Below, in pieces: positions 4,701-47,721 of a DNA stretch of 64,000 nucleotides; the first letter of the stretch is position 1; each line of letters opens with the position of its first letter. The notes under the pieces are model-generated. The model saw only the letters and a list, made by a program, of their open reading frames with translations, did not search any database and was not told where the DNA came from. The translations under genes and the position numbers were made by a program. The DNA comes from Candidatus Moraniibacteriota bacterium (GTDB lineage Bacteria; Patescibacteriota; Minisyncoccia; Moranbacterales; UBA1568): contig CP064989.1 of the NCBI GenBank assembly GCA_016699875.1, positions 712,788 through 776,787 on the forward strand, written 5' to 3'.

Positions 4701-4998
4701 TTGATTGTGAGGAAATATCGTCTACTTTCGGCACTCCCGACACAGCGTCTCCCACTCGTTTTGTGAGAAGAGTGCTGACCTCTTCGGCTGAGGTGCCGGG
4801 AAGTTCGGTTGTTATGGTAAACGCAGGCGCGACAATCTCCGGGTTGTACTGCTTTGGCATGAGTGCAAACGAAAGCGTTCCCCAAACGATGAGTATGCCG
4901 ATAGTGAGCAGGGAAATTTTTTGGTTGGAGAGAAAAATTCGCGTAGCTCTTCCGGCAAATCCGACAGGCACATCAGTGGTTTCGAAAGGATGTTTCAT
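1741..4998 (-). CDS. RND efflux transporter permease (AcrB/HAE-type, 12-TM with large periplasmic loops)
   Basis: 1085 aa with a TM helix right after the N-terminus, periplasmic porter-domain-like segments, and C-terminal TM bundles (IISVTLNPFL, GLLVDDAIVVVENI). Length and organisation match AcrB/CzcA-family pumps. The HAE versus HME subfamily is not resolved. Confidence 0.9.
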   Translation of the reverse strand: MKHPFETTDVPVGFAGRATRIFLSNQKISLLTIGILIVWGTLSFALMPKQYNPEIVAPAFTITTELPGTSAEEVSTLLTKRVGDAVSGVPKVDDISSQSIAGGKSVVVVKFLVGYSEESATLAINQKLQDIQTTLPFGASTPLVQSIRPDDVPILDIALTSPTLSETSLRALAIDIADILKLVPGISSADILGGHTEQLKITLHADALTARNVTIADIENAIRKSNGSLSISELQNIGKNPFISIVGIIENPDDLSHISIREASDSILRLGDIADISLEPDDIREYVRISERYENASETVHITLSKLKGENATTVSTEALKKLEDLQKTLVPDTVKTSILRDEGATAHEEISKLSFDLVKSIVIVGALLALFLGLRNAFVASISIPLVLLAVFGMGLLAGQTINRITLFALILSLGLLVDDAIVVVENIARSFRLFPNENRIKLIVQAVDEVGGALALSTLTMALAFLPMAFVSGMMGPYMGPIPFFVPAALFASLIISVTLNPFLSLLSMPRKILADTEKDNLFVRTFKRIEKIYEQTLSALLMHRKKRVLVLVTTGAALIIALILPLTPLVPFRMLPKADKDHFSVYLDLPDGTALDTTDAATHAIETILLKDSDILQVESFVGTAPVVDFNGLFKGSSQRTTENQATLVVHLTASNSRSITSEAIAFRVRESLTDFHEAFPDAVARIIEDPPGPPVLSTFLLKVKGSNSEIREQIARDLANASANIDGVVDIDTSIPERGINPTYRINTEKASRLGVSLPDIEMSIQTAFSGSNMGLFHSTTRENPAKEPRYIVIRFAPENRSQEQDLSRIKISGKSGDLIPITDLLEPVNSPTEQAILSDNRLETTFISAEMGNRSIVYAVLDIFPTLLSYHLPDNAGERISWSPLGVTYQDRSTGEQYRVEIGGEWKLTIEVFRDLGIVMGVVLFLIFFVLAARTKSLIIPGLIMISIPLGLIGILPGFAFLQAVKGTYFNATSMIGVIALSGLSVKNAIIYLEYLEPLRHAGMPMREALVEAGRIRLLPIVLTSLAAILGSLTIVSDPVWEGLAWSIIFGLSASTFLTLIIFPLLYFIFERKHWEEKAS

Positions 4999-5013
4999 AG
5001 TGATAGTGTCGGA

Positions 5014-6195
5014 CTATTCGTGATGAACGGCATATACAGACATCCCTTCTTGCAGGGAGTGCAAGCCTTCAGTAATGACTGTGTCGCTGATGTCGAGTCC
5101 GTTGAGTATTTCTCTCGAGTCCCCGTATTGGTTTCCGGCGACAACCGGTTGCTTATGTGTCTTTGAATCAGTAACAGTAAAAACGAATGTTTCGCCATAC
5201 TGTCGGATCAGCGCCGAATCCGGAATGAGCAGTGTATCTCTCGATGGTTCGGTTGGGAGTTCAACCGAAGCGTATTGTCCGGGGAATATTGTCGAAGATG
5301 GGTCGTCATGTGCGAGTAGTCGTATGATGGCGATGGTTTCGCCGGTTGACGGATTGGCAACGGGTGCAATGGAAAATACTTCGCCGTCGATAGATTGATT
5401 TGAATGTTCCGGTAGTATAGAGACACTCGATCCTTTCTGGATTGACGCGGCAAGACGGATTGGTACGGAGACGGGAATTTCAATGTCATTGGGTGAGACG
5501 AGGGAATAGAGAACGCTATTTGGACTTGCGAATGAACCGACAGATGTTTGTTTGGTCGCGACAATTCCTGAGAATGGCGCTCGGACGAAGCGGTTTTCGA
5601 GAGCGGCTCTTGATATTGTTTCAGAACCCTGGAGAGCAGCAACGGAAGCGGCTGCTTGGGCGTTTTCGGTGTCACGCAATTTCTTGGCGGTTCGAACGGC
5701 ATCCTCGGCGACACGGACGTCTTTGTCGGTTGCTATTCCGCGCTTTCGATCATCCTTTGTTTTCGAGAGGGCCGTCTCTGCGGCATCGACCTGTTGCTTT
5801 GTATACTTCTCCATCCGGTCAAGTGAGGTGAGAGCAGCTGAAAGTGAGAGCGAAGCGCTTTGATTTCCAGCTATGAGCTCATTTCCATCGAGTATTGCAA
5901 GAAGGTCCCCGGATTGAACAGAATCCCCGGGTTCTTTGAGGAGCGCTATGACAGATCCCGATACTTTCGGACTGATATCCGCATGGCGAATGCCACGAGC
6001 AAATCCGGAGAAGGTTTCAGTTGGCTGAATCTGCGAACGGGAAACAGACACGGTCTGTACGGGCATCGATACTGTTGCCAATTCATGCTGGACTTCCGGG
6101 TCAGCGGAGGCGTTCCAAGAAATGACTGCCCCGAGAGTACCCGCGAGAAAGAGGAGAAGGAGCTTCATGTGCTTTCGTTCGGAAATGATTTGCAT
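5014..6195 (-). CDS. RND efflux periplasmic adaptor (membrane-fusion protein, HlyD/AcrA family)
   Basis: 393 aa with a signal/TM anchor (MKLLLLFLAGTLGAVISW), a coiled-coil hairpin (LDRMEKYTKQQVDAAETAL...AEDAVRTAKKL), a lipoyl-like segment (GDSVQSGDLLAILD) and a beta-barrel. It lies immediately upstream of the RND permease on the same strand. Confidence 0.8.
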   Translation of the reverse strand: MQIISERKHMKLLLLFLAGTLGAVISWNASADPEVQHELATVSMPVQTVSVSRSQIQPTETFSGFARGIRHADISPKVSGSVIALLKEPGDSVQSGDLLAILDGNELIAGNQSASLSLSAALTSLDRMEKYTKQQVDAAETALSKTKDDRKRGIATDKDVRVAEDAVRTAKKLRDTENAQAAASVAALQGSETISRAALENRFVRAPFSGIVATKQTSVGSFASPNSVLYSLVSPNDIEIPVSVPIRLAASIQKGSSVSILPEHSNQSIDGEVFSIAPVANPSTGETIAIIRLLAHDDPSSTIFPGQYASVELPTEPSRDTLLIPDSALIRQYGETFVFTVTDSKTHKQPVVAGNQYGDSREILNGLDISDTVITEGLHSLQEGMSVYAVHHE

Positions 6196-10646: not shown

Positions 10647-10780
10647 ATTTTTCCCATCAAATCTCCAGAGTTTATCTCGAAAAATTTTCAAAATCGCTCC
10701 GAAATTATTCTTGAGATGAGTTTTCCATGTCCGCTCCTCCGGCATTTCATGATGCGATAGGGAACACTCGAAAAATTTCT

Positions 10781-11434
10781 ATGATGGATATAAAAAAACG
10801 GGCAAGAGAAATACTGAATCGATTGAAAAAGATATATCCGAAACCGGGACCGTTTGTCGAATGGTCAAGTCCGCTCGAATTGGTAGTGGGAACCGTGCTT
10901 TCGGCGCAGTGCACGGATGAACGAGTGAATCGCGTAACAAAGAATCTGTTCAAGAAATACAGGACGGCGAAGGACTATATGGATGCTGATCCGATAGAAT
11001 TGGAACAAGATATCTATCAAACCGGATTCTATAAATCAAAAGCGAAATATCTCCGGGCTATCGGAGCGATACTTGTCGAGAAATTTGGCGGAGAGGTGCC
11101 AGGTGACTTTACATCACTCCTTACCTTTCCTGGCGTTGCACGGAAGACGGCGCATATCGTGATGGCGAAAGCGTTTGGGAAATACACGGGCGTTGCTGTT
11201 GATACACATGTGATGCGTATGGCGCCCCGGCTCGGGCTGACAAAGCACTCTGAACAAGAGAAGATCGCGAAAGATCTCGAAGGCTTGTTTCCAACGAATG
11301 AGTATCTCCACGTCAATGAGTACTTTATTACGCACGGTCGCGCTATTTGTACTCCGAGAAGACCAAAATGCGGAGAGTGTGCATTGTTGGAGCTCTGTCC
11401 ATCTGGAAGGGAATCGATAGGCAATCTGCCATGA
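10781..11434 (+). CDS. nth: Endonuclease III (DNA glycosylase / AP lyase), 4Fe-4S cluster loop present
   Basis: HhH-GPD region (LLTFPGVARKTAHIVMAKAFG), catalytic Lys-containing helix, and a C-terminal C-x6-C-x2-C-x5-C motif (CTPRRPKCGECALLELC). The track ORF starts at 10727; the likely start is MMDIKK at 10781. Confidence 0.9.
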   Translation: MMDIKKRAREILNRLKKIYPKPGPFVEWSSPLELVVGTVLSAQCTDERVNRVTKNLFKKYRTAKDYMDADPIELEQDIYQTGFYKSKAKYLRAIGAILVEKFGGEVPGDFTSLLTFPGVARKTAHIVMAKAFGKYTGVAVDTHVMRMAPRLGLTKHSEQEKIAKDLEGLFPTNEYLHVNEYFITHGRAICTPRRPKCGECALLELCPSGRESIGNLP

Positions 11435-11546: not shown

Positions 11547-14500
11547 TTAGTAGTTTGCCGTTACGATATATACGGAGGATGTTTGGTAGGTGGCTGCTGG
11601 CTGAGCGTTTGAAACCGAGACTTTGTAGGTAACTGTGAACTGCTCATTTGAAACGGCGCCAGTTGAACCATCTATGGCACTGGTGTGATCAGCAACCACA
11701 TCACCAGGGGAGGATTGTGTAAATGCCGCATACTTCGTCCCGCCTCCAAAGCGATTTGATCCTTGGACGTCTGTGTCGCTTGAGGTGTAGCCGAATCCAT
11801 ACGTGCCGCCACTCCAGGTAAGCGGTGTCGACCAATTTCCGGAGAAGTTGCCCACGGTATCGCTTGGATTTTCGAGTGAGGTGAGATTGGCAGTATTGTA
11901 AGCCTTCACCGTATATCCGCTTGATGCATTGGTTGAAGTGGTGACGGTAAGCGTTTTGGTGTCGGTGTAGCTGTTGCCATTATTGAGATTGCTGAACGTG
12001 ATGGTATTGGTGCTCAACGAGAAAGAGAGTGTTGGTAAGACCTGCTCCCCATTTGAATTAACGGCGGTGCCAACATTGCCAGCATTGTCCGTTGCCCGGA
12101 CACTTGTGTAGTACGTTGTGCCGGTTGCAAGGTTGAGGCTCGACTGAGTGTAGGAAGTGCTCGTTGAATTATCGCACCAGTTGGCACTTGCCTGCCAGCT
12201 TCCTGCACCGGAGCAGACGCTCCAGTAGTAGTCGTCTGATGCGCGGCGAATAGCATATTCGTATGTATTGAGACCGGAGACATTTGCATCAAACCCGCTC
12301 CAATTGCTAGAGAGGGAAGTGAGTGTGCCATTGTTCCAGTTTTCGTCACCGCTTGTGCCATCGTTTACCGTTCCGCCAGTTGGCGCGGTTGCATCTACTT
12401 TGAAATCCATCGTTCCCGCGACGCCGAATTCCACGTAGGCGGACTCGGCGCTATTGCTATCGATAGCTTTGACGCGCCACCAATAGCCAGTTGCGCTGTC
12501 GGAGAGTGTCGATGGGCATGTGCCAGAGCAGGATCCGCTGCCGTATGTGCCAACAATAAATTCGAATGTTGTACCGGAAGCTGAGAAGGATCCATGTGTG
12601 TAATCAAGGACAAGTGCGGAAAATCCGGAATCCGTTGCGACTTGTACTTCATACTTCACGGTGTCGGTATCTGGGTCGGTGATAGTGAAGCCGAGTTTCG
12701 GTGTGTTTGTTGTGGTCCACGCGGATTCACTAATAGAGGCATTGCTTGAGTTCTTCTGGGTGAGCGAAGTCGGCGCATCTGGATTCGCATTTCCACCGCA
12801 CGCACCTCCGTTTATGGTCCAGTTAGTATTGTTGTCGTTGTCGGCAGTTGAATTGCTTGCGGTGATTGCTGTGGTGACGGCGTTGCCATCGTGCACATCG
12901 GCATAACTCACGCTGACAGTTGCTCCAGTTACGGTGATATCCCATTGATTGCCGTTGGTGACAGATTTCAGAAAGACACGTCCGGTTGTGCAGCCAGATC
13001 CAGTGACAGTGAATGCATGTGTTACGATAGTGCCTTGACTCTCATCGAACTCGACTGTTTTCCCGCCGGTCGTGATGGATAAATTGTAAAAAGTTGTGTT
13101 GGCGGAATAGTTCAAGCTGGATATTTTCGTATTGTCATTAAAAACTACCGTGCCGTTGTTGTGAGTAAAGGTTCCATTATTCGTGAAGTCATCGCCGATT
13201 GTGAAGCTGTTCGATGCGTTTGCTTGAAGGGTGGTATTGGCAGAAATAGAGACGCTTCCTGCCACAGTTAGTGTTGTTGAGGCATTGTTAGCATTTACGA
13301 CAACGCTCGTGTTTGTGCCGTTCCCGATAGTGAGATCACCGTTTACCGTGACGGTTCCCGCAGCGAAGTTGGTGGTGATGCTATTGGCTGATGGCTCTAC
13401 TTGCAAGTTGTTGTAAGTAAAATCAGCATTTACGGTTTGCGCCGAGCTTCCGTTGAAGTTTACCGTTGATCCAGTGATGGTGTAAGAATTGCTTCCCGGT
13501 GTGAAGGTGCTCGCAATGCCGATAGTCCCGGAGTTTGCAAGAACGCGCACACCAGTGGATGAACTAGTGAGGTTATTATAGTTCAGCGCTGGAATGGTTT
13601 GTGATCCCGCACCATTGAAATCTACTGTCGAAATGTTTGCATTAAATGTTCCGCTTGAAGTAAGTGAACTGGAAACGTAGAGTGTATTGCCGTCGAGAGT
13701 GAGTGCTCCGGAATTCGAGAGGTTTTCTGCGGTGATGTTTCCAGAGCTTCCGCTATCGGAGCGATAGGTATTTCCTGAGAGAACGGAAAGCGTACAGCTG
13801 GTTGAGCCGGATGCAGAACAAGCTGTGAGGTCGTCATTACCGTCTACGTCATAAAAAATATCCTCATTGCCACTGACGCTGTTGTCATATTGGGAAATGT
13901 TGGTATTGGAAATAGTTTGATTGTCACTGCTGCCGAGTGAAAATGTAAGGGCGTTTAAGACCATGCCGGTAATATTGGATCCGGCATATTTTGTGACGCC
14001 GATTGCTTCGGCGCTGTCGCTTACACTATCAATCCAAACCGTAACTACGTCTCCCGAAGTTGGTTCGCTCACACCGGAAATGCTCCATGTGCCTGATGAG
14101 ATGGTTCCGGTCTGTGCTTTGAGAGTTCCATTAATGGCGACTTTGACAGTTGAACCATTTGAACCATTGGCGCTTCCGGTGATGCTAATTGTGGCACCGA
14201 TGATGGTAAGCTGGGGTGTGACAGAATAGGTGTATATTGGTGTGCCGTTTCTGGTAATGCGGAATTGGTACACGTCGCCGACGATAGCGGTATCGGTTGC
14301 CTTTAATGACCATTCCATTTCGGTGTAGAAATTGTTGGCGATGTCGACAGAATTACTTGGATTGGTGTCGTCTTGGATATAGCCAGCGGTAAAGTTGGAA
14401 GTGGTCTTGCCGCTTGGCGCAGTGAGTTGTGCGGTTGTGTTCGTGCCTCCGCCTGCCGAGATGTAGCTGGAGTCGCCAAGGAGAATAGGCTGAGAAACGG

Positions 14501-16139
14501 CAACAACTTTGAAAGCGGCGACCACCATGGCATAGTCGTCCGAGGCGATTGTCCAACTGATTGTTTGTGATCCGGTTCCAGCCTTGATGTAGTATTGGTG
14601 ATTGTCTGAATAGGCGCCATCATCCACTTCGGCAAGTGCAGTTCCGGTTCTGGCGGTTGGTGCAGTGGCGAGTCCGTCACCGAGGACAGCAACATATACA
14701 TCGCCAGCAACAGAGGCTGAAACGCTTGCGGATGGGTTTGCACCTGCGGTCGATTCACTGAAGCCGGAAGCATCAAAGGCGGAAGTGTATCCGTCACCTG
14801 CGCTGTAAGAAGAGGCGGTGGCATAGAGGGTGATGGCGCCGGTATTTGGGACACTGATCGTGTTTGCTCCGGATGGCGGATCAATCAAATACCAGAGTTC
14901 TGCGGATGTTTCATAGCCTGTAGCACCACCACGGGTCTGATCTGCCTGAGTCATGGAAACGCCGTTATAGGTGGGGGCGCCGCCAGCCCTTTGTATTGTG
15001 CCAGTACCAACAATGGTGAGGACAAGCAATGTTGCATCTGTGCCGCAGTCGAATGCACGGGCAGAGGGCGATCCGTTTCCTTTCCATCGTTTTGAATTGA
15101 CGAAAGCATGTGTGGATGAACCGCTCTCACTCGCCAGTACCTTTTTGTAGACGCTCTCGGTCGATTTTTTGTATTCGAGTCGAAATGGAATGGAAATCGG
15201 ATCGGATGGCGTATCAAGGAGCATACGAAGACGAACATTCGTATTTTTATATTGGCTGGCGTTGGTATCCTGATTTTGCATCCATGTAGCAGCTGACTCA
15301 CTGCCATCGTCATTTCTGAATCGGAAGCCTTCTTGTTCGATTGGGGAAATTTCTGTGAATGCCGCTTCGACAACTGACCAGTCGTCAGACGTGCCAAATG
15401 TCCACCCCATAGCCGTGTCGGACGAATCTGTTTTGATGAGGTATTGTGCACCGTCGCCATAGGAGCCATCGTCTACGTCATAGAGTTGGGTGCCGGTGCG
15501 TGCTGAGGGCGCCCAAGTAGTGGCGCCGCTTCCTACAACGGCGACGAGTACGTCGCCTGATACGAGCCCGGTAAGTGATGGTCCGGTTGGGTTAACTGAT
15601 GTGTTTCCATTGTCATCATCAGTTTTCAGCACAGTCTTATAGCCGGATGTTGCTTTGTAAGAAGATGCATCAGCGGTCAAATAGACATTATTGCTATCGG
15701 GAATATTTATCTGGTAGGCACTGCCGGTTCCTGGATTGAGAAGATACCAAAGTTCAACGATGGTTTCTGCGCCGGATGGCGCCTGACCATTCTGATCTGC
15801 CTGAGTCATGGAAACGCCGTTATAGGTGGGGGCGCCGCCAGTGCGTGCGGTAGTGCCACCGACGACAATGGTGAGTGTGAGAAGTGTTGTTCCTGATCCG
15901 CACGTATGGTTAAAAGTGACGCCACTGGTATTTCGTGTGCGTGTTTGGTGACTACTGGCATCAAAAGTGTGCGCCTCGGCTTTTGGGACGAAGGCGGTTC
16001 CGGAGAATACTGCGAGGAATAACACAAAACAACCGAAGAAAACGTTTCGTCGGGAAAAAAATACGGGAACGCGGAGCGCTTCGGCATGATGGCAATAATG
16101 CGCCATAATGTGCTCGGTTCGCAATGAAAAAGAAAGCAT
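11547..16139 (-). CDS. Giant secreted surface protein (1530 aa) with a Thr/Ser/Gly/Asn-rich beta structure, two tandem ~190-aa N-terminal domain repeats, FN3-like modules and a ~165-aa C-terminal module shared with the 402-aa protein at 17686..18894
   Basis: Signal peptide (FGCFVLFLAVFSGTAFVPKAEA). Two N-terminal repeats (TLLTLTIVVGGTTARTGGAPTYNGVSMTQADQ... and TLLVLTIVGTGTIQRAGGAPTYNGVSMTQADQ...). The C-terminus ...FTVTYKVSVSNAQPAATYQTSSVYIVTANY is paralogous to the C-terminus of the 402-aa neighbour. Confidence 0.8.
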   Translation of the reverse strand: MLSFSLRTEHIMAHYCHHAEALRVPVFFSRRNVFFGCFVLFLAVFSGTAFVPKAEAHTFDASSHQTRTRNTSGVTFNHTCGSGTTLLTLTIVVGGTTARTGGAPTYNGVSMTQADQNGQAPSGAETIVELWYLLNPGTGSAYQINIPDSNNVYLTADASSYKATSGYKTVLKTDDDNGNTSVNPTGPSLTGLVSGDVLVAVVGSGATTWAPSARTGTQLYDVDDGSYGDGAQYLIKTDSSDTAMGWTFGTSDDWSVVEAAFTEISPIEQEGFRFRNDDGSESAATWMQNQDTNASQYKNTNVRLRMLLDTPSDPISIPFRLEYKKSTESVYKKVLASESGSSTHAFVNSKRWKGNGSPSARAFDCGTDATLLVLTIVGTGTIQRAGGAPTYNGVSMTQADQTRGGATGYETSAELWYLIDPPSGANTISVPNTGAITLYATASSYSAGDGYTSAFDASGFSESTAGANPSASVSASVAGDVYVAVLGDGLATAPTARTGTALAEVDDGAYSDNHQYYIKAGTGSQTISWTIASDDYAMVVAAFKVVAVSQPILLGDSSYISAGGGTNTTAQLTAPSGKTTSNFTAGYIQDDTNPSNSVDIANNFYTEMEWSLKATDTAIVGDVYQFRITRNGTPIYTYSVTPQLTIIGATISITGSANGSNGSTVKVAINGTLKAQTGTISSGTWSISGVSEPTSGDVVTVWIDSVSDSAEAIGVTKYAGSNITGMVLNALTFSLGSSDNQTISNTNISQYDNSVSGNEDIFYDVDGNDDLTACSASGSTSCTLSVLSGNTYRSDSGSSGNITAENLSNSGALTLDGNTLYVSSSLTSSGTFNANISTVDFNGAGSQTIPALNYNNLTSSSTGVRVLANSGTIGIASTFTPGSNSYTITGSTVNFNGSSAQTVNADFTYNNLQVEPSANSITTNFAAGTVTVNGDLTIGNGTNTSVVVNANNASTTLTVAGSVSISANTTLQANASNSFTIGDDFTNNGTFTHNNGTVVFNDNTKISSLNYSANTTFYNLSITTGGKTVEFDESQGTIVTHAFTVTGSGCTTGRVFLKSVTNGNQWDITVTGATVSVSYADVHDGNAVTTAITASNSTADNDNNTNWTINGGACGGNANPDAPTSLTQKNSSNASISESAWTTTNTPKLGFTITDPDTDTVKYEVQVATDSGFSALVLDYTHGSFSASGTTFEFIVGTYGSGSCSGTCPSTLSDSATGYWWRVKAIDSNSAESAYVEFGVAGTMDFKVDATAPTGGTVNDGTSGDENWNNGTLTSLSSNWSGFDANVSGLNTYEYAIRRASDDYYWSVCSGAGSWQASANWCDNSTSTSYTQSSLNLATGTTYYTSVRATDNAGNVGTAVNSNGEQVLPTLSFSLSTNTITFSNLNNGNSYTDTKTLTVTTSTNASSGYTVKAYNTANLTSLENPSDTVGNFSGNWSTPLTWSGGTYGFGYTSSDTDVQGSNRFGGGTKYAAFTQSSPGDVVADHTSAIDGSTGAVSNEQFTVTYKVSVSNAQPAATYQTSSVYIVTANY

Positions 16140-16272
16140 TTTTGCTTTCCTATTATACCACTCTTATGGATGGGAGGTTGGAAATAAGAAGTTGGAGGTG
16201 TGATGTGGCGAGGTGATTAACAAGGGGCAAGGAGTTAAGAAATGGGGAATAAAGTATGGGAAATAGACAGGG

Positions 16273-17595
16273 CTAAACCATGCGCTTCTTTCTATTCCGT
16301 GGAGGAATTTTCGAGTTTTCCTGCATAGGGCGGGGCGTTTGATTTCCTTGGAATTGTTTTGGCTGCTCATGTGACTCTCGGATTCTATGTAGACCGGAAG
16401 AATTGTGTTGTTGTGCTGAGAATCCGGTTTCTTCAAAGGGCGTTTCTTTTGATTGGTGTAGAGGAATGGTTTTTTGGCTTCTTTCCGATTCCCGGCCTTG
16501 TGTTTCTAGCTCCCAATTTCTTCCTATTGATCGATAATTGTTTTCCGATGGTTTCTTTTGAGAATCAAAATGAGCTTTTTGACTGAATGCTGGAAAAAAA
16601 CCGCTGTTGTTTCTCTGTAACATCTGTTTTTTTCGTCTCTTTCGTATGATGAAGAATGTGATGAAGATTATGAGAAAGAGAACAAAGAAACCGAGAGCAA
16701 TAATGATCCACCAAGGAATTATCCAGAAGGCGATGCTTCTTTCAAGCGTGTGATGTTCTTCACCATAGACGGCTTTCAAATTTGCGTGAAACTTGCCGAT
16801 GGGGATATTCCAGAAGAATGATGTGTCGGGATTCCATGAGACATTGAATTCGCGACGGCTGTCTGGAAGCACACTTCCTTTCATGCTGTTTATCTCGAGC
16901 CGTTCTCGTGTATGGCCACGCCAGTCAGTTATGACAACATCGCCTGTTGGGCGTGTGTGCACGTTACCCGTATTACGGAGGAGAAGGGTAAAATCAACTG
17001 GTGGTGCAAAGAAAAACCAGGGCGCCGAGAATTCATCCACATCGAGCGATTCACGGACGTCGCCAGGCACACGTACCAGGAGGAGGCTGCCGACCATAGT
17101 GGAAAGCGCCACTTGGGAAGCTTGTTCTTTATCGGCAGGCGGTTTAGTTCCGAGAAAAACCACACCATAGTGTCCGCCCGGCTCGGCATCTCGCGGTACT
17201 TTGATGCGGAAGCGGAATTCCACGACTTGCTCGGGAAGAATGGCGACTTTCGGATCAAAGAAGCTTACCCAACTTGCGATAGAGTAGCGAGAGTCATTCT
17301 CAATAGCCTTGTCGCCAATCTCGTATTTCGGTTCGCCACCCTCGCCACCTGCCGAGAAATTTCCGGCAGAAGGGTAAAGTTCAACAAGGTTCTTTGTTGG
17401 ATTGGTAATGCGTATAGTATAGGCAGTTTCCGTGCCAGGATCGAGCGTCATCTCAAAAGACGGCGGGGAAAGTGTCATGCCCTCGGCGTCGTTTTTGAAG
17501 GGGGCGGATTGAGCCTCAGCGTATTCCGTATATCCAAAAAATGCCGCGAGGGCGGCAATGGAAAGGATGAATTTTTGAAGAAAGAAGCGATACAT
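16273..17595 (-). CDS. Surface protein with DUF916/DUF3324 (WxL-interacting protein, WxLIP)-like architecture: signal peptide, two beta-sandwich domains, one C-terminal TM helix, basic cytoplasmic tail
   Basis: Signal peptide MYRFFLQKFILSIAALAAFFG; domain segments TLDPGTETAYTIRITNPTKNLVELYP and GHYGVVFL; C-terminal TM FWIIPWWIIIALGFFVLFLIIFITFFII followed by RKRRKK. The architecture matches WxLIP proteins. The family assignment is from pattern, not a search. Confidence 0.55.
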   Translation of the reverse strand: MYRFFLQKFILSIAALAAFFGYTEYAEAQSAPFKNDAEGMTLSPPSFEMTLDPGTETAYTIRITNPTKNLVELYPSAGNFSAGGEGGEPKYEIGDKAIENDSRYSIASWVSFFDPKVAILPEQVVEFRFRIKVPRDAEPGGHYGVVFLGTKPPADKEQASQVALSTMVGSLLLVRVPGDVRESLDVDEFSAPWFFFAPPVDFTLLLRNTGNVHTRPTGDVVITDWRGHTRERLEINSMKGSVLPDSRREFNVSWNPDTSFFWNIPIGKFHANLKAVYGEEHHTLERSIAFWIIPWWIIIALGFFVLFLIIFITFFIIRKRRKKQMLQRNNSGFFPAFSQKAHFDSQKKPSENNYRSIGRNWELETQGRESERSQKTIPLHQSKETPFEETGFSAQQHNSSGLHRIRESHEQPKQFQGNQTPRPMQENSKIPPRNRKKRMV

Positions 17596-17685
17596 ACCGG
17601 CAATAGGGGTGACTGATGTAGAAACGAGAAATCCCGCGTCTCTACATGATATGTAAGAGTGGAATTATTGTACATCTAAAATTTT

Positions 17686-18894
17686 TCAGAAATTCCCCGT
17701 GGCAATGTACGTGATAGTCGTTGAATAGCTACCAGCCTCGGTGGTAGCGGCGACGTTGACAATGTAGGAAACGGTATAAGTAGTGCTGGCTGAAGCAGCG
17801 GATGCGCTTGCAAGCGTGGTCGTAGTATTAGTGATGTATCGGAATTGGTCGGCAGTATTGTAGTCGCTTGCTGCTGCACCAGATCCGCCGGAAGGATCGG
17901 TACCGGTATTTGGTGTTGCATTATCTTTCAGGTTGATACCAAACTGCTCCGTGCCGGTCGATGACGTTGTTTTTGTGCCCATAGCGCTGATTGTATTGGC
18001 GCCGCTTGTCAGGGTATCGCCGTAGTAGGTGATGGTGTAACCGCTTGTTGCATTGGTAGCGGCGGCGAGTGTGTTGGCGGTTCCATTATTAAAGCCAGTA
18101 TTTGATGAATCAGGGTTTCCTCCGCCAGATTTGGTGAGAGAGACTGTATTCTGCGAAATTGCAAAAGTGAGGTAGGGATCAATAGTAGTTGAAACGACTA
18201 CTTGATCGTCATCTACGATAGCGGTTGCCACCTGACCTGTATCTGAAGCGGTTGCAATGCCGATAATATATGTTCCAGCCGTTGTTGGATTTACGACTTG
18301 GTGAGTTCCTGTTCCTCCTGTTGTAGCATTCGTTCCTACCTCAATGATGACTTTCCAACCAGCGGTAATGGCGGTGCCGCCACTTGTCGGATAAGTGAGA
18401 GTGAGTGTTCGATTGCCGGTGCCACCAAAAGCCGCTCCCCATGTTGACGCTCCGGCGGTTCCGGCAAGTGTCTGGTCGTTTTCTGTGCCGCCAGCTCCGT
18501 AGGAAAGGTCTATGTCACTAAAGACAACGCCAGTCGTAACATAATCGGAGGGAAGTGTAACGACAATAGTGCCACTCGACATGGCCGATGTCGAAGTGAA
18601 GAGAAGTGTGTGGTTGGCCGCGGTGTTTTTCTTGATGCGACTCTGGGTATCGGAGAGCGCGGTGAGCGAGGCGGCGGATGTGGTTTGTACGTATGCGGCT
18701 GAAAGTAAAGAAAAAGAGAGGATAATGACAAGCCCCCCGGTTACAATACTTTTATTTATCCGCGCTCGAATATTTCTTTGAATGTGCACTCCGAACGACA
18801 TATTTTTGGTTTTGCAGTGAGGCACTTTCCAAACAACACACAACGAGTGCTTCTCGCGTGACATAAGTATAGAGCTTTTCTGTTTTTTCGACAA
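17686..18894 (-). CDS. Secreted Thr/Gly/Ser-rich surface protein (402 aa in the track ORF; likely start at Met ~18801) carrying the same C-terminal module as the 1530-aa protein (WxL-like or spore-coat-U/Csu-pilin-like)
   Basis: Signal peptide (IVTGGLVIILSFSLLSAAYV). C-terminal DPYLTFAISQNTVSL...TYTVSYIVNVAATTEAGSYSTTITYIATGNF aligns with PTLSFSLSTNTITFSNL...FTVTYKVSVSNAQPAATYQTSSVYIVTANY of the giant neighbour. Confidence 0.65.
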   Translation of the reverse strand: MSKKQKSSILMSREKHSLCVVWKVPHCKTKNMSFGVHIQRNIRARINKSIVTGGLVIILSFSLLSAAYVQTTSAASLTALSDTQSRIKKNTAANHTLLFTSTSAMSSGTIVVTLPSDYVTTGVVFSDIDLSYGAGGTENDQTLAGTAGASTWGAAFGGTGNRTLTLTYPTSGGTAITAGWKVIIEVGTNATTGGTGTHQVVNPTTAGTYIIGIATASDTGQVATAIVDDDQVVVSTTIDPYLTFAISQNTVSLTKSGGGNPDSSNTGFNNGTANTLAAATNATSGYTITYYGDTLTSGANTISAMGTKTTSSTGTEQFGINLKDNATPNTGTDPSGGSGAAASDYNTADQFRYITNTTTTLASASAASASTTYTVSYIVNVAATTEAGSYSTTITYIATGNF

Positions 18895-18966
18895 AGGAAC
18901 AAATGCTGCGTGTCAAGAGGCTGCCTACCCTTCACTTTTCTTGGGCGCTCCGCTAGGATAGGGAGT

Positions 18967-20616
18967 ATGAAGAAAATATTGCAGCAGGCTCTACGAGAGG
19001 CATTCCAATCGCTGTGTCGCGAAGGTGTCTTTTTGATTTCACAAGAACAGCGGGAGGGACTGATATTTGAGGTGACGGTTCCGAAAGATGATTTGCATGG
19101 GGATTACACATCGAGTGTTGCACTGTCTCTGGCTGGTCGTCTGAAGCAGTTGCCGATTGATATCGCGCATACCTTAAAAGAGAAACTCTCGCAGAACGAG
19201 CGATTGAGCCAATTTTCGGTCGAAGTCGTTGCGCCTGGTTATGTCAATTTCTCTCTTACTCCAGAAGCATTGTCGGATATGGTGGCTGATATCTGCAGAC
19301 AAGGGAGGACATATGGATCTCGTGCCGACGATAAGCAACGGAAGATCCTTTTGGAGTTTGTGTCTGCCAATCCGACCGGGCCGCTCCATATGGGGAATAC
19401 GCGGGGAGGTTTTTTCGGGGAGACGCTCGCGCGGGTTTTGAGGAAGTGTGGCGCCAATATTGCCACGGAATATTATGTGAATGATGCCGGGGAACAGGTG
19501 GACAAGCTGGGACACAGTGTGCTTCGAGATGCTGACGCGGTATATGCAGGTGATTATATAGACCGTCTTGCTGAGAGATGGTCACGAGAGGGCGAAGGTT
19601 TTCGTGGGACTGATCCGCGATCGATCGGAGAATGGGCGGGGAGCATTATTCTCGAAGAATATATCAAGCCAACACTTCGTGAGAAAATGGGTATAGCTTT
19701 CGATGTGTTCATTTCCGAGAGAGATGACATTATCCGGTCAGGTTTTGTTGATAAAGCAATTTCACTGCTTGCGGAGAAAGGATTGACGTATGAGGAATCG
19801 GGTGCACTGTGGCTTCGGACGACCCAGTATGGTGACGACAAGGATCGCGTGCTTGTGAAGGCGAATGGGATCAAAACCTATTTCGCATCGGATTGCGGAT
19901 ATCTGCTCCACAAACGAGAACGCGATTTCGAAGAAATTTACGAAGTGTGGGGCGCGGATCACCACGGATATGTGGCGAGGTTCCTCGCGGCAGCGGAGGC
20001 GCTTGGATTCTCTCGGGATCAGGTGAAATTCACATTGGTTCAAATGGTGCGGCTCGTGAAGGATGGCAAGGAAGTCCGCATGTCCAAGCGCGCCGGGAAC
20101 GTCGTGACGGTAGATGAGTTGCTCGGTCGAATCGATGCGGAAGTTGTAAGATTCTTTTTCCTTATGTATTCTCCCGATACGCACATGAACTTTGACATGG
20201 GACTCGCTGAGGAACAAAGTAAGAAGAACCCGGTCTTCTACGTGCAATATGCGCATGCTCGTATGGCGAGTATTTTCCGAAAAGCAGAAGAGGAACTTGA
20301 TCTAGATTCGAGTCAATATTCTGCTAAAGAGAGTGGAACACATTTGCGAAATTCGAAAGAAATTCTTCTGGCGCGGCATCTGGCGAAGTTTCCGGACATG
20401 CTCTGCCTGATTGCTGAAACATCCGCTGTGCATCAGTTGCCGCAATATGCCATTCGATTGGCGGATCTTTTCCACTCGTTTTATGGTGAATGCACCGTGA
20501 TCGATACGGAAGATATGAATACGACTCGGTTGCGCCTGGCGCTTGTGGGCGCGACAAAGAATGTGCTTGCCGAGACACTTCGGTTGATCGGCGTATCGGC
20601 ACCGGAGAAAATGTAG
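18967..20616 (+). CDS. argS: Arginyl-tRNA synthetase
   Basis: Class I HIGH-type motif (PTGPLHMGNTRG), MSKRAGN (KMSK), and an anticodon-binding DALR-type C-terminal domain. The track ORF starts at 18910; MKKILQQ at 18967 is the likely start. Confidence 0.95.
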   Translation: MKKILQQALREAFQSLCREGVFLISQEQREGLIFEVTVPKDDLHGDYTSSVALSLAGRLKQLPIDIAHTLKEKLSQNERLSQFSVEVVAPGYVNFSLTPEALSDMVADICRQGRTYGSRADDKQRKILLEFVSANPTGPLHMGNTRGGFFGETLARVLRKCGANIATEYYVNDAGEQVDKLGHSVLRDADAVYAGDYIDRLAERWSREGEGFRGTDPRSIGEWAGSIILEEYIKPTLREKMGIAFDVFISERDDIIRSGFVDKAISLLAEKGLTYEESGALWLRTTQYGDDKDRVLVKANGIKTYFASDCGYLLHKRERDFEEIYEVWGADHHGYVARFLAAAEALGFSRDQVKFTLVQMVRLVKDGKEVRMSKRAGNVVTVDELLGRIDAEVVRFFFLMYSPDTHMNFDMGLAEEQSKKNPVFYVQYAHARMASIFRKAEEELDLDSSQYSAKESGTHLRNSKEILLARHLAKFPDMLCLIAETSAVHQLPQYAIRLADLFHSFYGECTVIDTEDMNTTRLRLALVGATKNVLAETLRLIGVSAPEKM

Positions 20617-22670: not shown

Positions 22671-23021
22671 ATACAATTCATCCCCCTTCCACATTTCCGG
22701 ATTCTTTTCGATATATTTCACAATCAAGTTCCATTCTCGATCATTCCGAATAATGTGTTCGTAATAATTCCGTTGCCATATTGATTTTTCAAATCGCGGG
22801 AATTCTTTGGTTTTAACGTGTTGAATGTATTCATTTGCGGTCAACGATTTAAAGGCACCAATAATATTTCCAAGGGTTGTGCCGATCGGGATCGGTAGGG
22901 GCGACGGCTTGTCCTCGCCATGTTCCCGATTGTCTGTTTGCGAATAATGTAGATGGGACACCCACAAGGGGCGCCATGCAAAAGGGCGCCCACAAGGGGC
23001 GCCCCTACCATTCAGAAACAT
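22665..23021 (-). pseudogene. Truncated REP-associated tyrosine transposase (RAYT / IS200-like Y1 transposase) remnant
   Basis: The C-terminal 75 aa (GNIIGAFKSLTANEYIQHVK...SIWQRNYYEHIIRNDREWNLIVKYIEKNPEMW) match the FKS and WQRxYYDHIIR...NP motifs of the RAYT/IS200 TnpA C-terminus. A possible HuH (SHLHY) is present, but the N-terminal ~50 aa are missing. The ORF N-terminus is a translation of REP-like repeats. Confidence 0.6.
22957..23009. repeat. Two adjacent REP-like repeats (CCCACAAGGGGCGCC ... GGGCGCCCACAAGGGGCGCCCC, including a 10-bp perfect palindrome GGGGCGCCCC) upstream of the RAYT remnant
   Basis: Read directly from the sequence. Same core as the copies at 22595-22670. Confidence 0.55.
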
Positions 23022-23063
23022 GATACAATGTTTCTATGTTCTCTTTCTCTCCCGCTTTCTCCT

Positions 23064-24491
23064 ATGAAACTCTCCTGGACACGCGCCATTCAATGGGTTG
23101 GCATTCTTGCGGTGTTGGTTTTTGTTGTGGCTCTTCGATATGAGGCACCGTCAGAGGCGGGCATGCAAATGAATGCCTCTCCGGACTCACCCTTCTCCCA
23201 ATCCCTCCGCGGCTACTGGAAACTCGACGACGGCACTGGCACCAACGCCACGGACTCAAGTGGCAATGGGAACACTCTTGCCATGACTGGATCCCCAAGT
23301 TGGGTGACCGGACAAATTGGTCCCTCCGCCCTCGACTTCTCCGGAAGTGGACAGTATCTCTCCATCGCCTCTCCCTCAAGCGCTCTCGACTTTACCGATG
23401 GAGCGAGCTTTACATTGACCGGCTGGTTCAATAGAGACACATTTGCCAATGATCACACCATCCTCTCCACCAAGAGCGGACAGTCTACTGAAAGTGATGG
23501 CTACATCGCATATATTGACGATGCAACGGATCAGCTTATCATTCGCTTTGATGAAAATGGATCAACCGATGCAAGAACGTTTACATCCACATCCACCTTT
23601 ACGGCTACCGGTTGGCATAGCTTTGCTCTCTCTTGGAATGAAAGCGCTCCCGATGCCGTTCTCTATATCGATGGTAAACCCGATGGGTCAGGAAGCGGAA
23701 CCGTCTTTGCCAGTATGGGAGATCTTTCCAACTCAAATGCTTTCTACATTGGTGCTGAAACCGATGCTGGGAATCCTTTCGATGGCAAACTCGATGATAT
23801 CCGTATCTATGGTTATGCCCTCAGTGCTGAGCAGGTGAAGAAACTGTACAACACCACCGCTCCCACCCAACCCGTTGATACAAGCTTAGTAGGACACTGG
23901 ACCTTTGATGGGACGGATATACAGGGGACCACCGCAATTGATAGAAGCAGCTTTGGGAATAACGGGACGATAACGGGAGCAACGAAGACTATTGGGAAGT
24001 TGGGTCAGGCACTCAGTTTTAATGGGACGAGTGATTATGTGGATGTAGGAACAGCGCTAGATTGTAGCGGCACCAAAACAGTCAGTCTTTGGTTTAAAGA
24101 ACTTGGCAATGAAGATACGCTCTTTTTCTCATCGACAGGTGGAACGAGCGACTATATTTTAATTGAGTTCTATAATTCAGATAGGATAGCAGTCGAGGTG
24201 GAAGATACATATCCAAGTTCAAAAAGCAGGCAAGTGAGTGGATTTAATACGGATGAATGGTATCATCTCGTTGTAACCAAAACAGCAGGAGGTGTTACTG
24301 GTATTTATGTTAATGGTTTTGATGAAGCTGGATCTGGAGGTAATTTCTCACCGTTTGGAGGAACGAACAAAACATATATCGGCAGACATCCAAGCGGAGG
24401 ATATTTTGAAGGATCAATTGACGATGTACGCATCTACAATCGCACGCTTTCCACAACGGAAATCACAAATTTGTATAATTTGGGGAAATAG
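23064..24491 (+). CDS. Secreted protein with two tandem LamG-like (concanavalin A-like lectin/glucanase) domains
   Basis: LRGYWKLDDGTGTNATDSSGNGNTLAMTGSPSWVTGQIGPSALDFSGSGQYLS...LTGWFNRD...FDGKLDDIRIYGYALSAEQVKKLYN, then a second copy LVGHWTFDG...FEGSIDDVRIYNRTLSTTEITNLYN. The track ORF begins at 22953 inside the REP repeats; the TM/signal start MKLSWTRAIQWVGILAVLVFVV at 23064 is more likely. Confidence 0.8.
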   Translation: MKLSWTRAIQWVGILAVLVFVVALRYEAPSEAGMQMNASPDSPFSQSLRGYWKLDDGTGTNATDSSGNGNTLAMTGSPSWVTGQIGPSALDFSGSGQYLSIASPSSALDFTDGASFTLTGWFNRDTFANDHTILSTKSGQSTESDGYIAYIDDATDQLIIRFDENGSTDARTFTSTSTFTATGWHSFALSWNESAPDAVLYIDGKPDGSGSGTVFASMGDLSNSNAFYIGAETDAGNPFDGKLDDIRIYGYALSAEQVKKLYNTTAPTQPVDTSLVGHWTFDGTDIQGTTAIDRSSFGNNGTITGATKTIGKLGQALSFNGTSDYVDVGTALDCSGTKTVSLWFKELGNEDTLFFSSTGGTSDYILIEFYNSDRIAVEVEDTYPSSKSRQVSGFNTDEWYHLVVTKTAGGVTGIYVNGFDEAGSGGNFSPFGGTNKTYIGRHPSGGYFEGSIDDVRIYNRTLSTTEITNLYNLGK

Positions 24492-24508: not shown

Positions 24509-27500
24509 ATGAGGAGGAAAGTATTTTTGAGTTCAATGGGAGTTTTAATGAGTTTCTTCTTGGTGCAGGAAGCAACTGCATCGCCTTCGATTTCTTCTGT
24601 TTCTGGCACATGGAATCACAAGTCCACGATCACAGTGAGTGGTTTAGGATTTGGTACGAAGGCTACCGTGGCGCCGATAGTGTGGGATGATGCATCGGGG
24701 AGTAACATTTTGAATAACTGGAGTGGCGCATGGCCGACGTCAGCGGCGGGGTCGTCGCAAATGAATTATTATTTACCAATGCGCGGAGTCGCTCTACCTC
24801 ACAACAACATTACAAAATATATAGCAGGTTGTATAAGCGGTGGTGGTGCTGATACTGGCAATAATGCAGATTTATTTAAAACAATTTCAAATGTACAATT
24901 CCCGTCTTATATGTATGTTTCTTGGTATCATAGAGCTGATCCGGCATGGGTATTTACAGGAAGTGAACACAACTACAAATTGTTTGATTGGTCTATTGGA
25001 ACCGAGCCGATGGGTAGTGACAACTGGTATTTCGAATATAATCCGCCGCCTTTAAACAATACACCTACCGGTTCGGATCCATTCAATGATCCGAACTATC
25101 ATACCAATAACAATGGTGGTATGGGAATGTTCAGTACATGGGGTGATTATGCCTATAAACCAATGAATGGATGGGTCAAACTCGAACTTGAGATAAGATT
25201 CGACAGAACAGCATCAGGATATGTAAAAGCTTGGGAAAATGGGAAACAAGTTTTTAATAATAGTGGCGTAACAGATGCTACATCTGGATCGCAGAGAACG
25301 GTTACTGTGGGCGGATATACAATGCCGAGAAGTAGTAACCAATGGATGTATTTTGCTGACGTCTATATTGATACTGCCCGCCAGCGTATTGTCCTTGCTA
25401 ACAACCCCAATATCAACAACGCCACCATTAAAGAAGTCCAGATCCCGAGCGCATGGAACGATACGTCAATCAGCCTCTCTTCCAATCTTGGTAAGTTCAC
25501 GAGCGGTCAAACCGCATACCTCTTTGTCTATGACTCGACCGGCACACCAAATACAACTGGTTATCCGGTGACGATCGGCGGCGGAGGTGGTGGTGACACC
25601 ACTCCTCCCACTTCTCCCACCAACCTTGTCGCAAATGCCACCAGCCAATCAAGCATTACCGTCTCTTGGACTGCTGCTACTGACAACATCGGAGTAGCAG
25701 GCTACCAAGTGGAACATTGTTCTCCTTCTGGTTGCTCCACATTTACCCAAGTAGGAACTCCAACATCTTCTCCTTTTATTGATTCAGGATTAACAGCAAA
25801 TGCCTTCTACAACTACCACGTCCGTGCCGTCGATGCTGCCGGCAATACTTCAGGCTGGAGCAATGTTGTGGGAGCAACTACTCAAGCCGCTTCACAAACG
25901 CCCACCATCTCCCTCTCTGCAAACCCGACGAGTATCACCTCCGGACAATCCAGTACTCTTACTTGGAGTTCCACTAACGCCACTAGCTGTACGGCTTCCG
26001 GAAGTTGGTCTGGTACCAAAGCCACAAGCGGCACCCAGTCTGTTTCTCCCGCCACAACGAGTACCTACACCCTCACCTGTACCGGTACGGGAGGAGCGAC
26101 CAATCAGAGCGCGACGGTAACGGTGGGGAGTGGAGGAAGTAATGTTTCTATGAATGAGTGCTCAACAATGCAAAATGGTTGGATTTTCTGCAATGACTTC
26201 GATACCAATGTCACCACTGATACGCAACGAAGAGCACAGTGGGATGATTATGACGGCGCGACCGACGTCAACTTCCCACAGGACAATGGACCATCGCAGA
26301 ATTCCAGCAACCATGTTGCCCAATTCCTCATTCCACAGAATGCGTCTGCCGGTGCCGATCTTGTCAAAGTTTTTGGCAGTTCCTATCAGAAACTCTATCT
26401 GCGCTACTACACCAAATACGCTACTGGTTTTCCATTTACCATGGGGAATCATGGAGGAGGCTTAACCGCAGGTGATCGAGCACATCTCGCTACCTCTGGC
26501 TATCGACCTGGTGATCCAGCAACGCCAAGTGGTTCCGACGAATGGGCGGACTTTCGAGTGCAGTACAATAAGGGATCGAATCCGATTCCCTACGCTTACT
26601 CATACAATGTTGGCATGTATCAAGACTGTCCAAGCTCTGGAAGCTGCTTTGGAGATTCTTACCCGTGCGTCTATGACAGCGGCCAATCCTACTGTACAAA
26701 AGCTGTTGATCGACCAACAGCCACTATGCCGACTATTACAGCTGGTAACTGGCATTGTGTCGAGGAAACGGTTGATATGGGAACAGCGGGACAGTCAAAT
26801 GGAACATTTCAGCTTACATGGGATGGCGCCTATGCAGGCAATCTGGTCAATATGCATTTCCGAAACAATGCAAACAATTTGTTACACAATCTCTACTTAT
26901 CGCTCTACAGTGGTGATGCGACGCATGCTCTAGCTGATCAGCGACTCGACAATATCGTTGTCTCCACACAGCCCATTGGGTGTGGGAACACCTCCACCCC
27001 CGACACCACCCCTCCCACCAGTCCAACCAACCTCGCTGCCAATGCCACCAGTGAGTCCAGCATCACCGTCTCTTGGGACCCAGCAACCGACAACATTGGA
27101 GTCACTGGCTACCAAGTCGAACGCTGTCTTGGTCTCTCATGCTCCAACTTTACTCAAGTCGGAACTACCACAAGCTCTCCCCTTACAGACTCCAACCTGA
27201 CCGCTTCTACCGGCTACTCCTACCATGTAAGAGCTGTCGATGCCGCAGGGAACACCAGTGACTGGTCTAATGTCGTCGGTACAACGACTCAAGGTACACC
27301 CACCCCCACCTCCTGCTCCACCGTCACCCCCACCAACTTCACCACCTCAACCTACACCGGCTACGGTGCTCCCTATGACGTCTTTGTGAGTAACACTCCT
27401 CTTATCTCCACCACCTGTACCAGCAGCGATACCCACACGATAAACGCTACCCTCGGTATTACCGGAGACACTACCCGTATCGTCTACACCAAAGGCTACT

Positions 27501-46110: not shown

Positions 46111-46857
46111 ATGAATATATCCATTGCGGCGGAAACACTCTTTCATTTGTGGGGGTTTCCGGTCACAAATACCATTATTCTGACACTGATAATCAGTGTC
46201 ACACTTATGTTGTTTTCGGCGCTTTTTTTTAAGAAGCTTTCCCTGGTGCCAGGCCGAGTGCAAGCGGGGGTTGAAGCGGTATTTGAAGCACTCTGGAATC
46301 TTGTGGCAGATGTTGCCGGGAATGAGCGATTGGCACGGAAATTTTTCCCGATAGTGGCGACCATTTTTCTTTTTGTGCTCTTTTCGAACTGGATCGAATT
46401 GGTGCCAGGCCTCGGTACGATTGGTCTTCGCGAGGGACATGAGGTGATTCCATTTTTGCGGAGCGCGTCTGCGGACCTTAATATGACGCTTGCGATCTCT
46501 CTCGTAGTAGTTTTTTCGGTGCAATTCATCGGAATTGCCACGATCGGTACGGCGAAATATGCGAGTAAGTTCTTGGTAAGTCCGTTTCGGAAACCCTATG
46601 GCGTCGGGACATTTATGGGAATTCTGGAGCTTATGGGCGAAGCGACACGTGTTATCTCGTTCTCTTTTCGTCTTTTCGGGAATATTTTCGCGGGCGAAGT
46701 GCTCCTCATTGTCGTGTTAAACTTAGTTCCGTATTTTGTGCCGCTTCCTTTTCTCTTCCTCGAGCTCTTTGTGGGCGTGGTGCAGGCGGCTGTCTTTTCT
46801 ATTTTGACGCTGGTTTTCCTCAAGATGGCAACTCTCGAACCGGAGCATGCTCATTGA
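46111..46857 (+). CDS. atpB: F0F1 ATP synthase subunit a
   Basis: Polytopic membrane protein with the RLFGNIFAGEVLL motif containing the essential Arg. Confidence 0.95.
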   Translation: MNISIAAETLFHLWGFPVTNTIILTLIISVTLMLFSALFFKKLSLVPGRVQAGVEAVFEALWNLVADVAGNERLARKFFPIVATIFLFVLFSNWIELVPGLGTIGLREGHEVIPFLRSASADLNMTLAISLVVVFSVQFIGIATIGTAKYASKFLVSPFRKPYGVGTFMGILELMGEATRVISFSFRLFGNIFAGEVLLIVVLNLVPYFVPLPFLFLELFVGVVQAAVFSILTLVFLKMATLEPEHAH

Positions 46858-46879
46858 GGAATGTTTATTAACTGTTTAA

Positions 46880-47161: not shown

Positions 47162-47226
47162 TTTTCCGGTAAGTAAGGAGACGATGGGCTACGAGATATA
47201 AGTAGAGCTGGTTTTCTCTTGTTGTT

Positions 47227-47718: not shown

Positions 47719-47721
47719 TCT

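Follow-up and report, generated by a model that had tools for sequence, protein, structure and literature searches.

What do three adjacent genes build at the cell surface when the middle one encodes a membrane protein and the two outer ones encode secreted proteins that end in the same domain? The question is raised by a locus of Candidatus Moraniibacteriota bacterium, a member of the candidate phyla radiation (CPR), in a 64,000-nucleotide (nt) stretch of contig CP064989.1 (hereafter the window; coordinates are window positions). An earlier sequence-only reading of this DNA listed three open reading frames (ORFs), all of which we found on the minus strand where it had placed them, encoding proteins of 402, 440, and 1530 amino acids (aa), here called the pilin, the chaperone, and the giant after the roles proposed below. 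That reading suggested a Csc-like cluster with divergent WxL domains. Instead, we estimate a probability of roughly 75% that the three genes form a minimal, usher-less, Pam-type pilus operon, comprising a pilin, a membrane-anchored chaperone, and a giant that is the probable tip adhesin. Four things are shown directly: the family to which the pilin domain belongs, the fold predicted for the chaperone, the module shared by the two outer proteins, and conserved synteny.

Pam pili became known as recently as 2026 from a single parasite in culture, the Saccharimonadia member Candidatus Mycosynbacter amalyticus, and involve the pilins PamA/B/E, the chaperones PamC/D, the tip protein PamT, and the anchor PamR (10.64898/2026.03.03.709456). 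Structures of the PamA and PamB filaments have been solved by cryogenic electron microscopy (cryo-EM); in both, the inter-domain linker is the donated strand, and the C-terminal domain (CTD) accepts the linker of the neighboring subunit (10.64898/2026.03.03.709456). The same preprint proposes that PamC and PamD are PapD/FimC-like chaperones with a C-terminal transmembrane (TM) helix, that PamT is a single-domain tip, and that PamR is an RbmA-like membrane anchor and terminator.

The shared C-terminal module

The C-terminal modules of the pilin and the giant had been called clearly homologous, which does not hold at the level of pairwise comparison: BLASTP is almost blank, aligning only the last 28 residues (39% identity, E = 0.011), and profiles were therefore needed to show the relationship. 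A profile derived from 120 pilin relatives matches the end of the giant with E = 7e-12, and a profile restricted to the CTD (pamCTD) scores 46 bits on residues 1366–1530 of the giant and 53.6 bits on its last 170 residues alone. As controls, 2000 shuffles gave a mean of −8 and a maximum of 5.8 bits, and other segments of the giant, a protein rich in S, T, and N, scored at most 0.9 bits. The existence of a shared module of about 165 aa is thus upheld (46–54 bits vs a shuffle maximum of 5.8), and the profile scan found only these two CTD-bearing ORFs in the window.

The module was compared with the NCBIfam model NF058581 (CPR_Pam_pilin_C, “Pam pilus system pilin subunit”; cutoff 55 bits). Residues 266–402 of the pilin match with 132.5 bits (E = 1.2e-38), and residues 1377–1530 of the giant match the model end to end (positions 3–148 of 148) with 27.6 bits (E = 2.7e-6), below the cutoff. 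Judged by this family membership, the shared module is the CTD of Pam pilins. The suggestion that the locus is a Csc-like cluster with divergent WxL domains, and would be new as such, was wrong as filed, since the module matches a characterized family for which a filament structure is available (10.64898/2026.03.03.709456), an outcome that the earlier reading had itself named as refuting.

Two other identities had been put forward for the module, a WxL domain (PF13731) and a spore-coat-U domain (SCPU, PF05229). Neither could be retained: in the Pfam scan, 0 of 91 relatives matched PF13731 at E ≤ 1, and 0 of 91 matched PF05229. The module of the pilin contains no Trp at all, and Trp-x-Leu motifs are absent. 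No WxL chain was retrieved from the PDB with the pilin profile, which at E ≤ 10 yielded nothing but chance-level matches (E > 1) to FtsZ and ribosomal protein L6, and none ranked in the Foldseek top 50 for the pilin model. The idea that the C-terminal ends are donor-strand-like was nevertheless a good one, and the resemblance to WxL that prompted the earlier assignment remains interesting.

Pilin

The 402-aa protein has the full plan of a Pam pilin, namely a signal peptide, an N-terminal β-sandwich, a conserved linker, and the CTD (Table 1). Its AF2 model (predicted local distance difference test score, pLDDT, 96.9) consists of two β-domains with a 14-residue non-strand segment, DDDQVVVSTTIDPY, between them. 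The linker ranks with the best-conserved parts of the family (mean column conservation 0.74). Across 91 relatives, conservation over 12-residue windows is highest in the C-terminal strand TEAGSYSTTITY, in SSTGTEQFGINL, and in the linker DDQVVVSTTIDP. The same pattern is reported for PamA and PamB, in the donated linker and in the site that binds it (10.64898/2026.03.03.709456).

Foldseek matched the N-terminal domain of the pilin to a BslA/YweA-like Ig fold (template modeling, or TM, score 0.6–0.68 relative to the target). With the whole model, the further PDB matches were generic two-Ig adhesins (ClfA and SdrG, TM score ~0.2) and, weakly, CfaE, a result that is not decisive for the CTD. Single-sequence searches of the PDB sequence set gave no match for the pilin, the chaperone, or the giant, and the family profiles of the pilin and the chaperone likewise found nothing.

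Chaperone

The AF2 model of the 440-aa protein (residues 28–335; pLDDT 89, predicted TM score 0.76) shows two β-sandwich (Ig-like) domains and a long C-terminal helix. Its top Foldseek matches in the PDB are the WxL-interacting protein (WxLIP) of E. faecium, 9i1y (E = 2.5e-11), and 9i25_C (E up to 2.5e-10), the latter being a WxLIP in complex with a long WxL protein; alignments of the whole model to WxLIP span 249–273 columns. The next matches are the chaperone-usher chaperones CfaA, CsuC, FimC, Caf1M, and DraB (E = 1e-9 to 1e-7), and RbmA is also among the matches. The operon thus encodes a PapD/FimC-like chaperone with a C-terminal TM helix, likened to PamC/PamD by description.

The WxLIP of Lactobacillales consists of DUF916, DUF3324, and a TM helix (PMC10599100), and the middle protein had been assigned this layout. 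The WxLIP-like part of that assignment stands on the fold matches and on PF06030 (DUF916, WxLIP_PGBD), which matches the protein at a sub-threshold 22.6 bits (E = 1.1e-4, cutoff 27.3) and 55 of 61 chaperone relatives at E ≤ 0.1 (best E = 1.8e-8). The DUF3324 part finds no support in sequence, as PF11797 matched neither the 440-aa protein nor any of the 61 relatives; a second Ig-like domain and a TM helix are present in the model. The profile of the family, for which we collected 172 homologs, did not find the sequence of 9i1y.

The predicted succession of signal peptide, two β-domains, and a single C-terminal TM helix agrees with the AF2 model, and what had been described as a basic tail is a low-complexity cytoplasmic tail of 120 residues that starts with RKRRKK and is rich in K, R, Q, E, and S. 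The tail is shared by the nearest relatives only; past the TM helix, the Moraniibacteriota ortholog no longer aligns well, and more distant relatives, 315–345 aa long, end soon after it.

A near-invariant motif, AEPGGHYG, opens a long hairpin, for which the AF2 model has strands 113–122 and 140–149 flanking a loop of pLDDT 64–75. We infer that this hairpin is a candidate complementing strand, equivalent to the F1–G1 hairpin of usher-system chaperones and to the WxLIP hairpin, because of the analogy with the latter, which completes the WxL sandwich, and with the chaperone models of the preprint (10.64898/2026.03.03.709456).

Giant

The 1530-aa protein comprises a signal peptide, two tandem copies of a domain of about 180 aa, a long S/T/N-rich middle, a weak Ig-like match, and the C-terminal Pam domain. 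The duplicated domain belongs to a family of 819 representative clusters at E ≤ 1e-3 (136 at E ≤ 1e-30), usually located at the N terminus of proteins of 200–2500 aa; it has no match in Pfam or among PDB sequences, also when the family profile is used. Giants orthologous to this one, 740–2539 aa long and each terminating precisely in the CTD, are present at about 19 related loci.

Fifteen giants with the CTD at their very end were compared with the pilin profile by alignment, and the linker motif QVxVSTT was found in none of them. Pilins retain DDQVxVSTTIDPYLTF; giants have a deletion or unrelated sequence at the QVxVSTT position. Both have Y-x-T-x-x-x-[YF]-[IV]-x-T-x-N-[FY]-COOH as the motif of their C-terminal strand. 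These alignments suggest that giants can accept a strand and cannot donate one; a giant that lacks the donor linker would therefore occupy the distal tip, as FimH or PapG do, and we consider this position probable. Giants and small PamT-like ORFs were found together in 1 of 82 loci, and the giant may take the role of PamT.

Conservation and synteny

Conservation of the gene order was evaluated in a second Candidatus Moraniibacteriota genome, CP064974, which has argS, a pilin (358 aa), a chaperone (439 aa), a giant (1576 aa), nth, YdjM, and sigma-70, that is, the order of the window with the same flanks. More widely, loci were retrieved from genome contigs by means of the chaperone motif, yielding 181 loci, almost all labeled CPR, with 82 in the non-redundant set. 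They come from Saccharimonadia, Moraniibacteriota, Parcubacteria, Berkelbacteria, Gracilibacteria, and other lineages. In 68 of these 82, the chaperone gene has a gene with a Pam CTD within 400 bp of it on the same strand. The order in Saccharimonadia loci is chaperone, pilin, chaperone. Two of the chaperone loci encode a PamT above the cutoff of the equivalog model NF058579 (246.5 and 291.1 bits vs 240), and this connects the family of the chaperone with canonical pam operons. No ORF of the window reaches this cutoff, the pilin scoring 102 bits.

Three loci from other lineages have ORFs of 272–304 aa right after the chaperone gene (L005, 9951..10841; L006, 9987..10805; L004, 10145..11059). 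Those of L005 and L006 combine a signal peptide with a donor-like strand at the N terminus (VTVTAQVPSP or LVAVAATVPSKV), an Ig-like domain, and a TM helix at the C terminus; that of L004 has a signal peptide, a β-rich middle, and a C-terminal helix, and a donor-like strand was not identified in it. We regard these ORFs as candidate PamR-type terminators or anchors. They have no BLAST match in the window, and the closest relative of the locus is also without a counterpart.

Proposed assembly mechanism

From these data we infer that the pilin polymerizes, that the giant sits at the tip, and that the chaperone serves as the anchor, and assembly could proceed as follows. All three products would be exported through Sec. 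The chaperone would be held in the cell membrane by its C-terminal helix, with its two Ig-like domains facing outward, and would play a PapD/FimC-like role of the PamC/PamD type, capping the incomplete Ig-like CTD of newly exported subunits with a strand of its long hairpin. Growth would then take place at the base of the filament through donor-strand exchange, in which the linker strand of an incoming pilin (DDQVVVSTTID) would displace the chaperone strand from the CTD of the subunit before it. Having an acceptor domain and no donor linker, the giant could enter only as the first, distal subunit, and its adhesin-like domains, some 1300 residues in all, would be exposed at the tip in the manner of FimH or PapG, replacing the small PamT. 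The base of the filament would probably be held by the membrane-anchored chaperone itself, because no PamR-like terminator is encoded here.

Several observations weigh against this interpretation. No filament has been observed for the Moraniibacteriota lineage, and both strand complementation and the placement of the giant at the tip are predictions. The CTD of the giant stays under the NCBIfam cutoff, and the similarity of the pilin to chaperone-usher subunits in Foldseek is weak (CfaE, E = 8.8e-4, TM score 0.22). PamR, PamT, and PamE are missing from the window. The likeness of the chaperone to the PamC/PamD of M. amalyticus is one of description, and NCBIfam has no model for these chaperones. 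Finally, the near-exclusion of giants and PamT is statistically weak: chance alone would give about 3.7 co-occurrences against the one found, and contig ends truncate many of the loci.

An alternative is that the locus is a WxL/Csc-like, non-covalent display module, in which the anchor binds the CTDs of the small and the large protein by strand insertion and no filament is formed. The gene set mirrors that of the commonest WxL cluster, in which one WxLIP is accompanied by two proteins, one short and one long, with a C-terminal domain in common (98 of 179 clusters; PMC10599100), and the earlier reading was right to see this logic in the locus. The best structural match of the middle protein is indeed a WxLIP, PF06030 matches its family, and a gene for a PamR-type terminator or anchor is absent. 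However, the module is not a WxL domain by any test and lacks Trp-x-Leu motifs, and the pilin is a member of NF058581 above the cutoff. The small protein, moreover, has an N-terminal domain and a strongly conserved linker, the element that polymerizes PamA and PamB in the cryo-EM structures, and the same chaperone family occurs in operons with a true PamT. We therefore consider a display module without filament unlikely.

We regard as improbable the further alternative that the giant stands outside the pilus, as an independent surface or S-layer-like adhesin that has borrowed the CTD as a tag for chaperone-dependent export or anchoring and stays chaperone-bound at the membrane: its CTD is divergent (27.6 bits vs a cutoff of 55), a TATAAT box just upstream of its start makes a promoter of its own possible, and its N-terminal domain family is found in many other protein contexts, but CTD-ending giants recur within pilin–chaperone clusters in several CPR lineages, share the C-terminal strand motif with pilins, and almost never accompany PamT, which suggests that they take its role.

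Comparison with known systems

The Pam-type pilus proposed here belongs to a kind of system that has already been described (2026) and whose pilin domain is already modeled in NCBIfam; the locus is a variant of it and not a WxL cluster. Like the known Pam pili, it is CPR-restricted, has a pilin of the same CTD family with an N-terminal domain and a conserved linker, and has an ATP synthase operon and a tail-fiber-like gene in its wider neighborhood. It differs in having three genes instead of about seven or more, with one pilin, one chaperone, and no PamT, PamE, or PamR; in the 1530-aa CTD protein, undescribed in the preprint, that presumably takes the tip role; in the long cytoplasmic tail of the chaperone; and in its origin from Moraniibacteriota (Parcubacteria group), whereas the preprint stresses Saccharimonadia or Microgenomatia. 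The three-gene Moraniibacteriota form, the recurrent CTD giants, and the structural link between the chaperone and WxLIP are absent from the preprint.

With WxL/Csc clusters the locus has in common the fold of the middle protein, whose domain 1 is weakly PF06030-like, the three-gene logic with a shared domain at the extreme C terminus of a small and a large protein, and a predicted interaction by strand insertion. Unlike in those clusters, the shared domain lacks a PF13731 match and Trp-x-Leu motifs, PF11797 is not matched, the small protein has an additional N-terminal domain and a donor linker, there is no LPXTG partner at the locus, and the host is a CPR bacterium and not a Firmicute.

The chaperone-usher systems of Gram-negative bacteria (Fim, Pap, CFA/I, Csu, and Caf1) resemble the locus in the chaperone fold (CfaA, CsuC, FimC, and Caf1M), in the proposed logic of donor-strand complementation and exchange, in a two-part tip adhesin whose pilin domain would accept but not donate a strand, and in the conserved, aromatic extreme C terminus of the subunits. 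They differ from it in that the locus has no usher or outer membrane and a membrane-anchored chaperone, that the putative donor strand is an internal linker of a two-domain subunit instead of an N-terminal extension, and that sequence similarity is undetectable. Nothing usher-like was found among the three genes and the scanned ORFs of the window, the remaining ORFs not having been scanned. To our knowledge, CPR bacteria have no outer membrane.

CPR bacteria live on host cells, and their mechanism of attachment is largely unknown. The locus would represent a stripped-down version of the Pam system in the Parcubacteria group, and recurrent giants ending in a pilin acceptor domain are obvious candidates for host-recognizing tips. 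That the nearest structural relative of the chaperone is a Gram-positive WxLIP provides a testable bridge between chaperone-usher pili, WxL clusters, and Pam pili, which have so far been treated separately. We tentatively raise the possibility, which we hold to be less than even, that the Pam pili of CPR bacteria and the WxL/Csc clusters of Lactobacillales are two branches of a single ancient system of single-membrane bacteria, one without an usher and based on strand complementation with the help of a chaperone. If so, WxLIP would be a membrane-anchored homolog of PapD-type chaperones, WxL proteins would be held, or even polymerized, by donor-strand complementation, giants with a C-terminal acceptor domain would reflect a shared mode of adhesin presentation, and the Moraniibacteriota three-gene operon would be the form nearest to the common plan. 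WxL is never mentioned in the Pam preprint (10.64898/2026.03.03.709456), and no paper in the searched literature connects WxL proteins with donor-strand systems.

Gene calls and genomic neighborhood

The three genes form a compact block bounded by argS and nth (Table 1). The true start of the pilin is probably the ATG at 18801 (M32), giving a protein of 371 aa; this start is preferred because most of its 523 homologs are 350–375 aa long and because a promoter-like site overlaps the listed start, the TTG at 18894. Promoter scans performed no better than shuffles, and promoter and terminator scans were uninformative overall. A GGTATAAT box at 16150..16157 (minus strand) lies 10 nt upstream of the first ATG of the giant (16139), which points to one of two possibilities, an internal promoter whose transcript is nearly leaderless or a real start at M12 (16106).

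Table 1. Genes, domains, and motifs of the putative pilus locus (window coordinates; residues numbered as in the listed ORFs)
Feature	Position	Strand	Remark
argS	18910..20616	+	Divergently transcribed flank
Pilin gene, Pam-type major	17686..18894	-	402 aa as listed; NF058581 above cutoff
Pilin signal peptide, residues 32–74, MSFGVH...YVQTTSA	18673..18801	-	Read from sequence; profile matches begin just after
Pilin N-terminal β-sandwich domain, residues 75–227	18214..18672	-	pamNTD profile E = 9e-62
Pilin inter-domain linker DDDQVVVSTTIDP, putative donor strand	18175..18213	-	Conserved; non-strand in monomer model
Pilin CTD, residues 241–402, predicted truncated Ig-like strand acceptor, end ...YSTTITYIATGNF-COOH	17689..18174	-	pamCTD profile E = 8e-81
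Chaperone gene, membrane-anchored, PapD/WxLIP-like, PamC/PamD-like	16273..17595	-	440 aa; fold, TM helix, and synteny
Chaperone domain 1, DUF916/WxLIP_PGBD-like, residues 46–144	17164..17460	-	PF06030 sub-threshold; ends in AEPGGHYG
AEPGGHYG motif	17164..17187	-	Near-invariant family-wide; P112 and H115 invariant, rest ≥90% conserved
Long β-hairpin, residues 140–176, GGHYGVVFLG...MVGSLLLVRV	17068..17178	-	AF2 model; low-confidence loop
Chaperone TM helix, residues 291–317, then RKRRKK	16645..16725	-	Called from the residues; model helix 268–303 (fragment numbering)
Chaperone cytoplasmic tail, ~120 aa, low-complexity	16276..16638	-	Poorly conserved
Giant gene, secreted protein ending in Pam CTD, candidate tip adhesin	11547..16139	-	1530 aa
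Giant domain copy 1, ~180 aa, residues 80–254	15378..15902	-	49% identical to copy 2, E = 8e-46
Giant domain copy 2, residues 365–536	14532..15047	-	Repeat of copy 1
Giant Ig/Fn3-like domain, residues 1143–1236	12432..12713	-	PF25788 Ig_Rha78A_N, E = 2.3e-5, 25 bits, cutoff 27.4
Giant divergent Pam CTD, residues 1366–1530, end ...YQTSSVYIVTANY-COOH	11550..12044	-	pamCTD 46 bits; NF058581 sub-threshold
nth	10727..11434	+	Convergent flank

A tail-fiber-like gene and an ATP synthase operon have been named as conserved neighbors around pam operons (10.64898/2026.03.03.709456). In the window, both lie about 27 kb away from the pam genes: a 2096-aa protein with a Peptidase_S74 (endosialidase chaperone) domain and the look of a tail fiber is encoded at 39008..45298 (+), directly followed by an F-type ATP synthase operon at 46111..53258 (+) with genes for subunits a, b, alpha, gamma, and beta. 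Together with two ORFs that have no Pfam or NCBIfam match (31520..37504, +, 1994 aa; 37162..39117, +, 651 aa), the 2096-aa ORF makes up a block of giant genes of about 14 kb.

At 1741..6195 (−), an RND efflux permease (1085 aa) and its membrane-fusion adaptor (393 aa) are encoded in this CPR genome, and no outer-membrane factor was seen. A 512-aa protein encoded at 22953..24491 (+) has two LamG/ConA-like domains (PF13385, E = 5e-49) and scores 76 bits, far below the cutoff of 410, against the NCBIfam model “TafC family fimbrial protein”. Its gene is followed by one for a 1079-aa protein with polysaccharide-lyase-like and fn3 domains (24509..27748, +), and the same neighbors occur in the other Moraniibacteriota genome, beside recQ.

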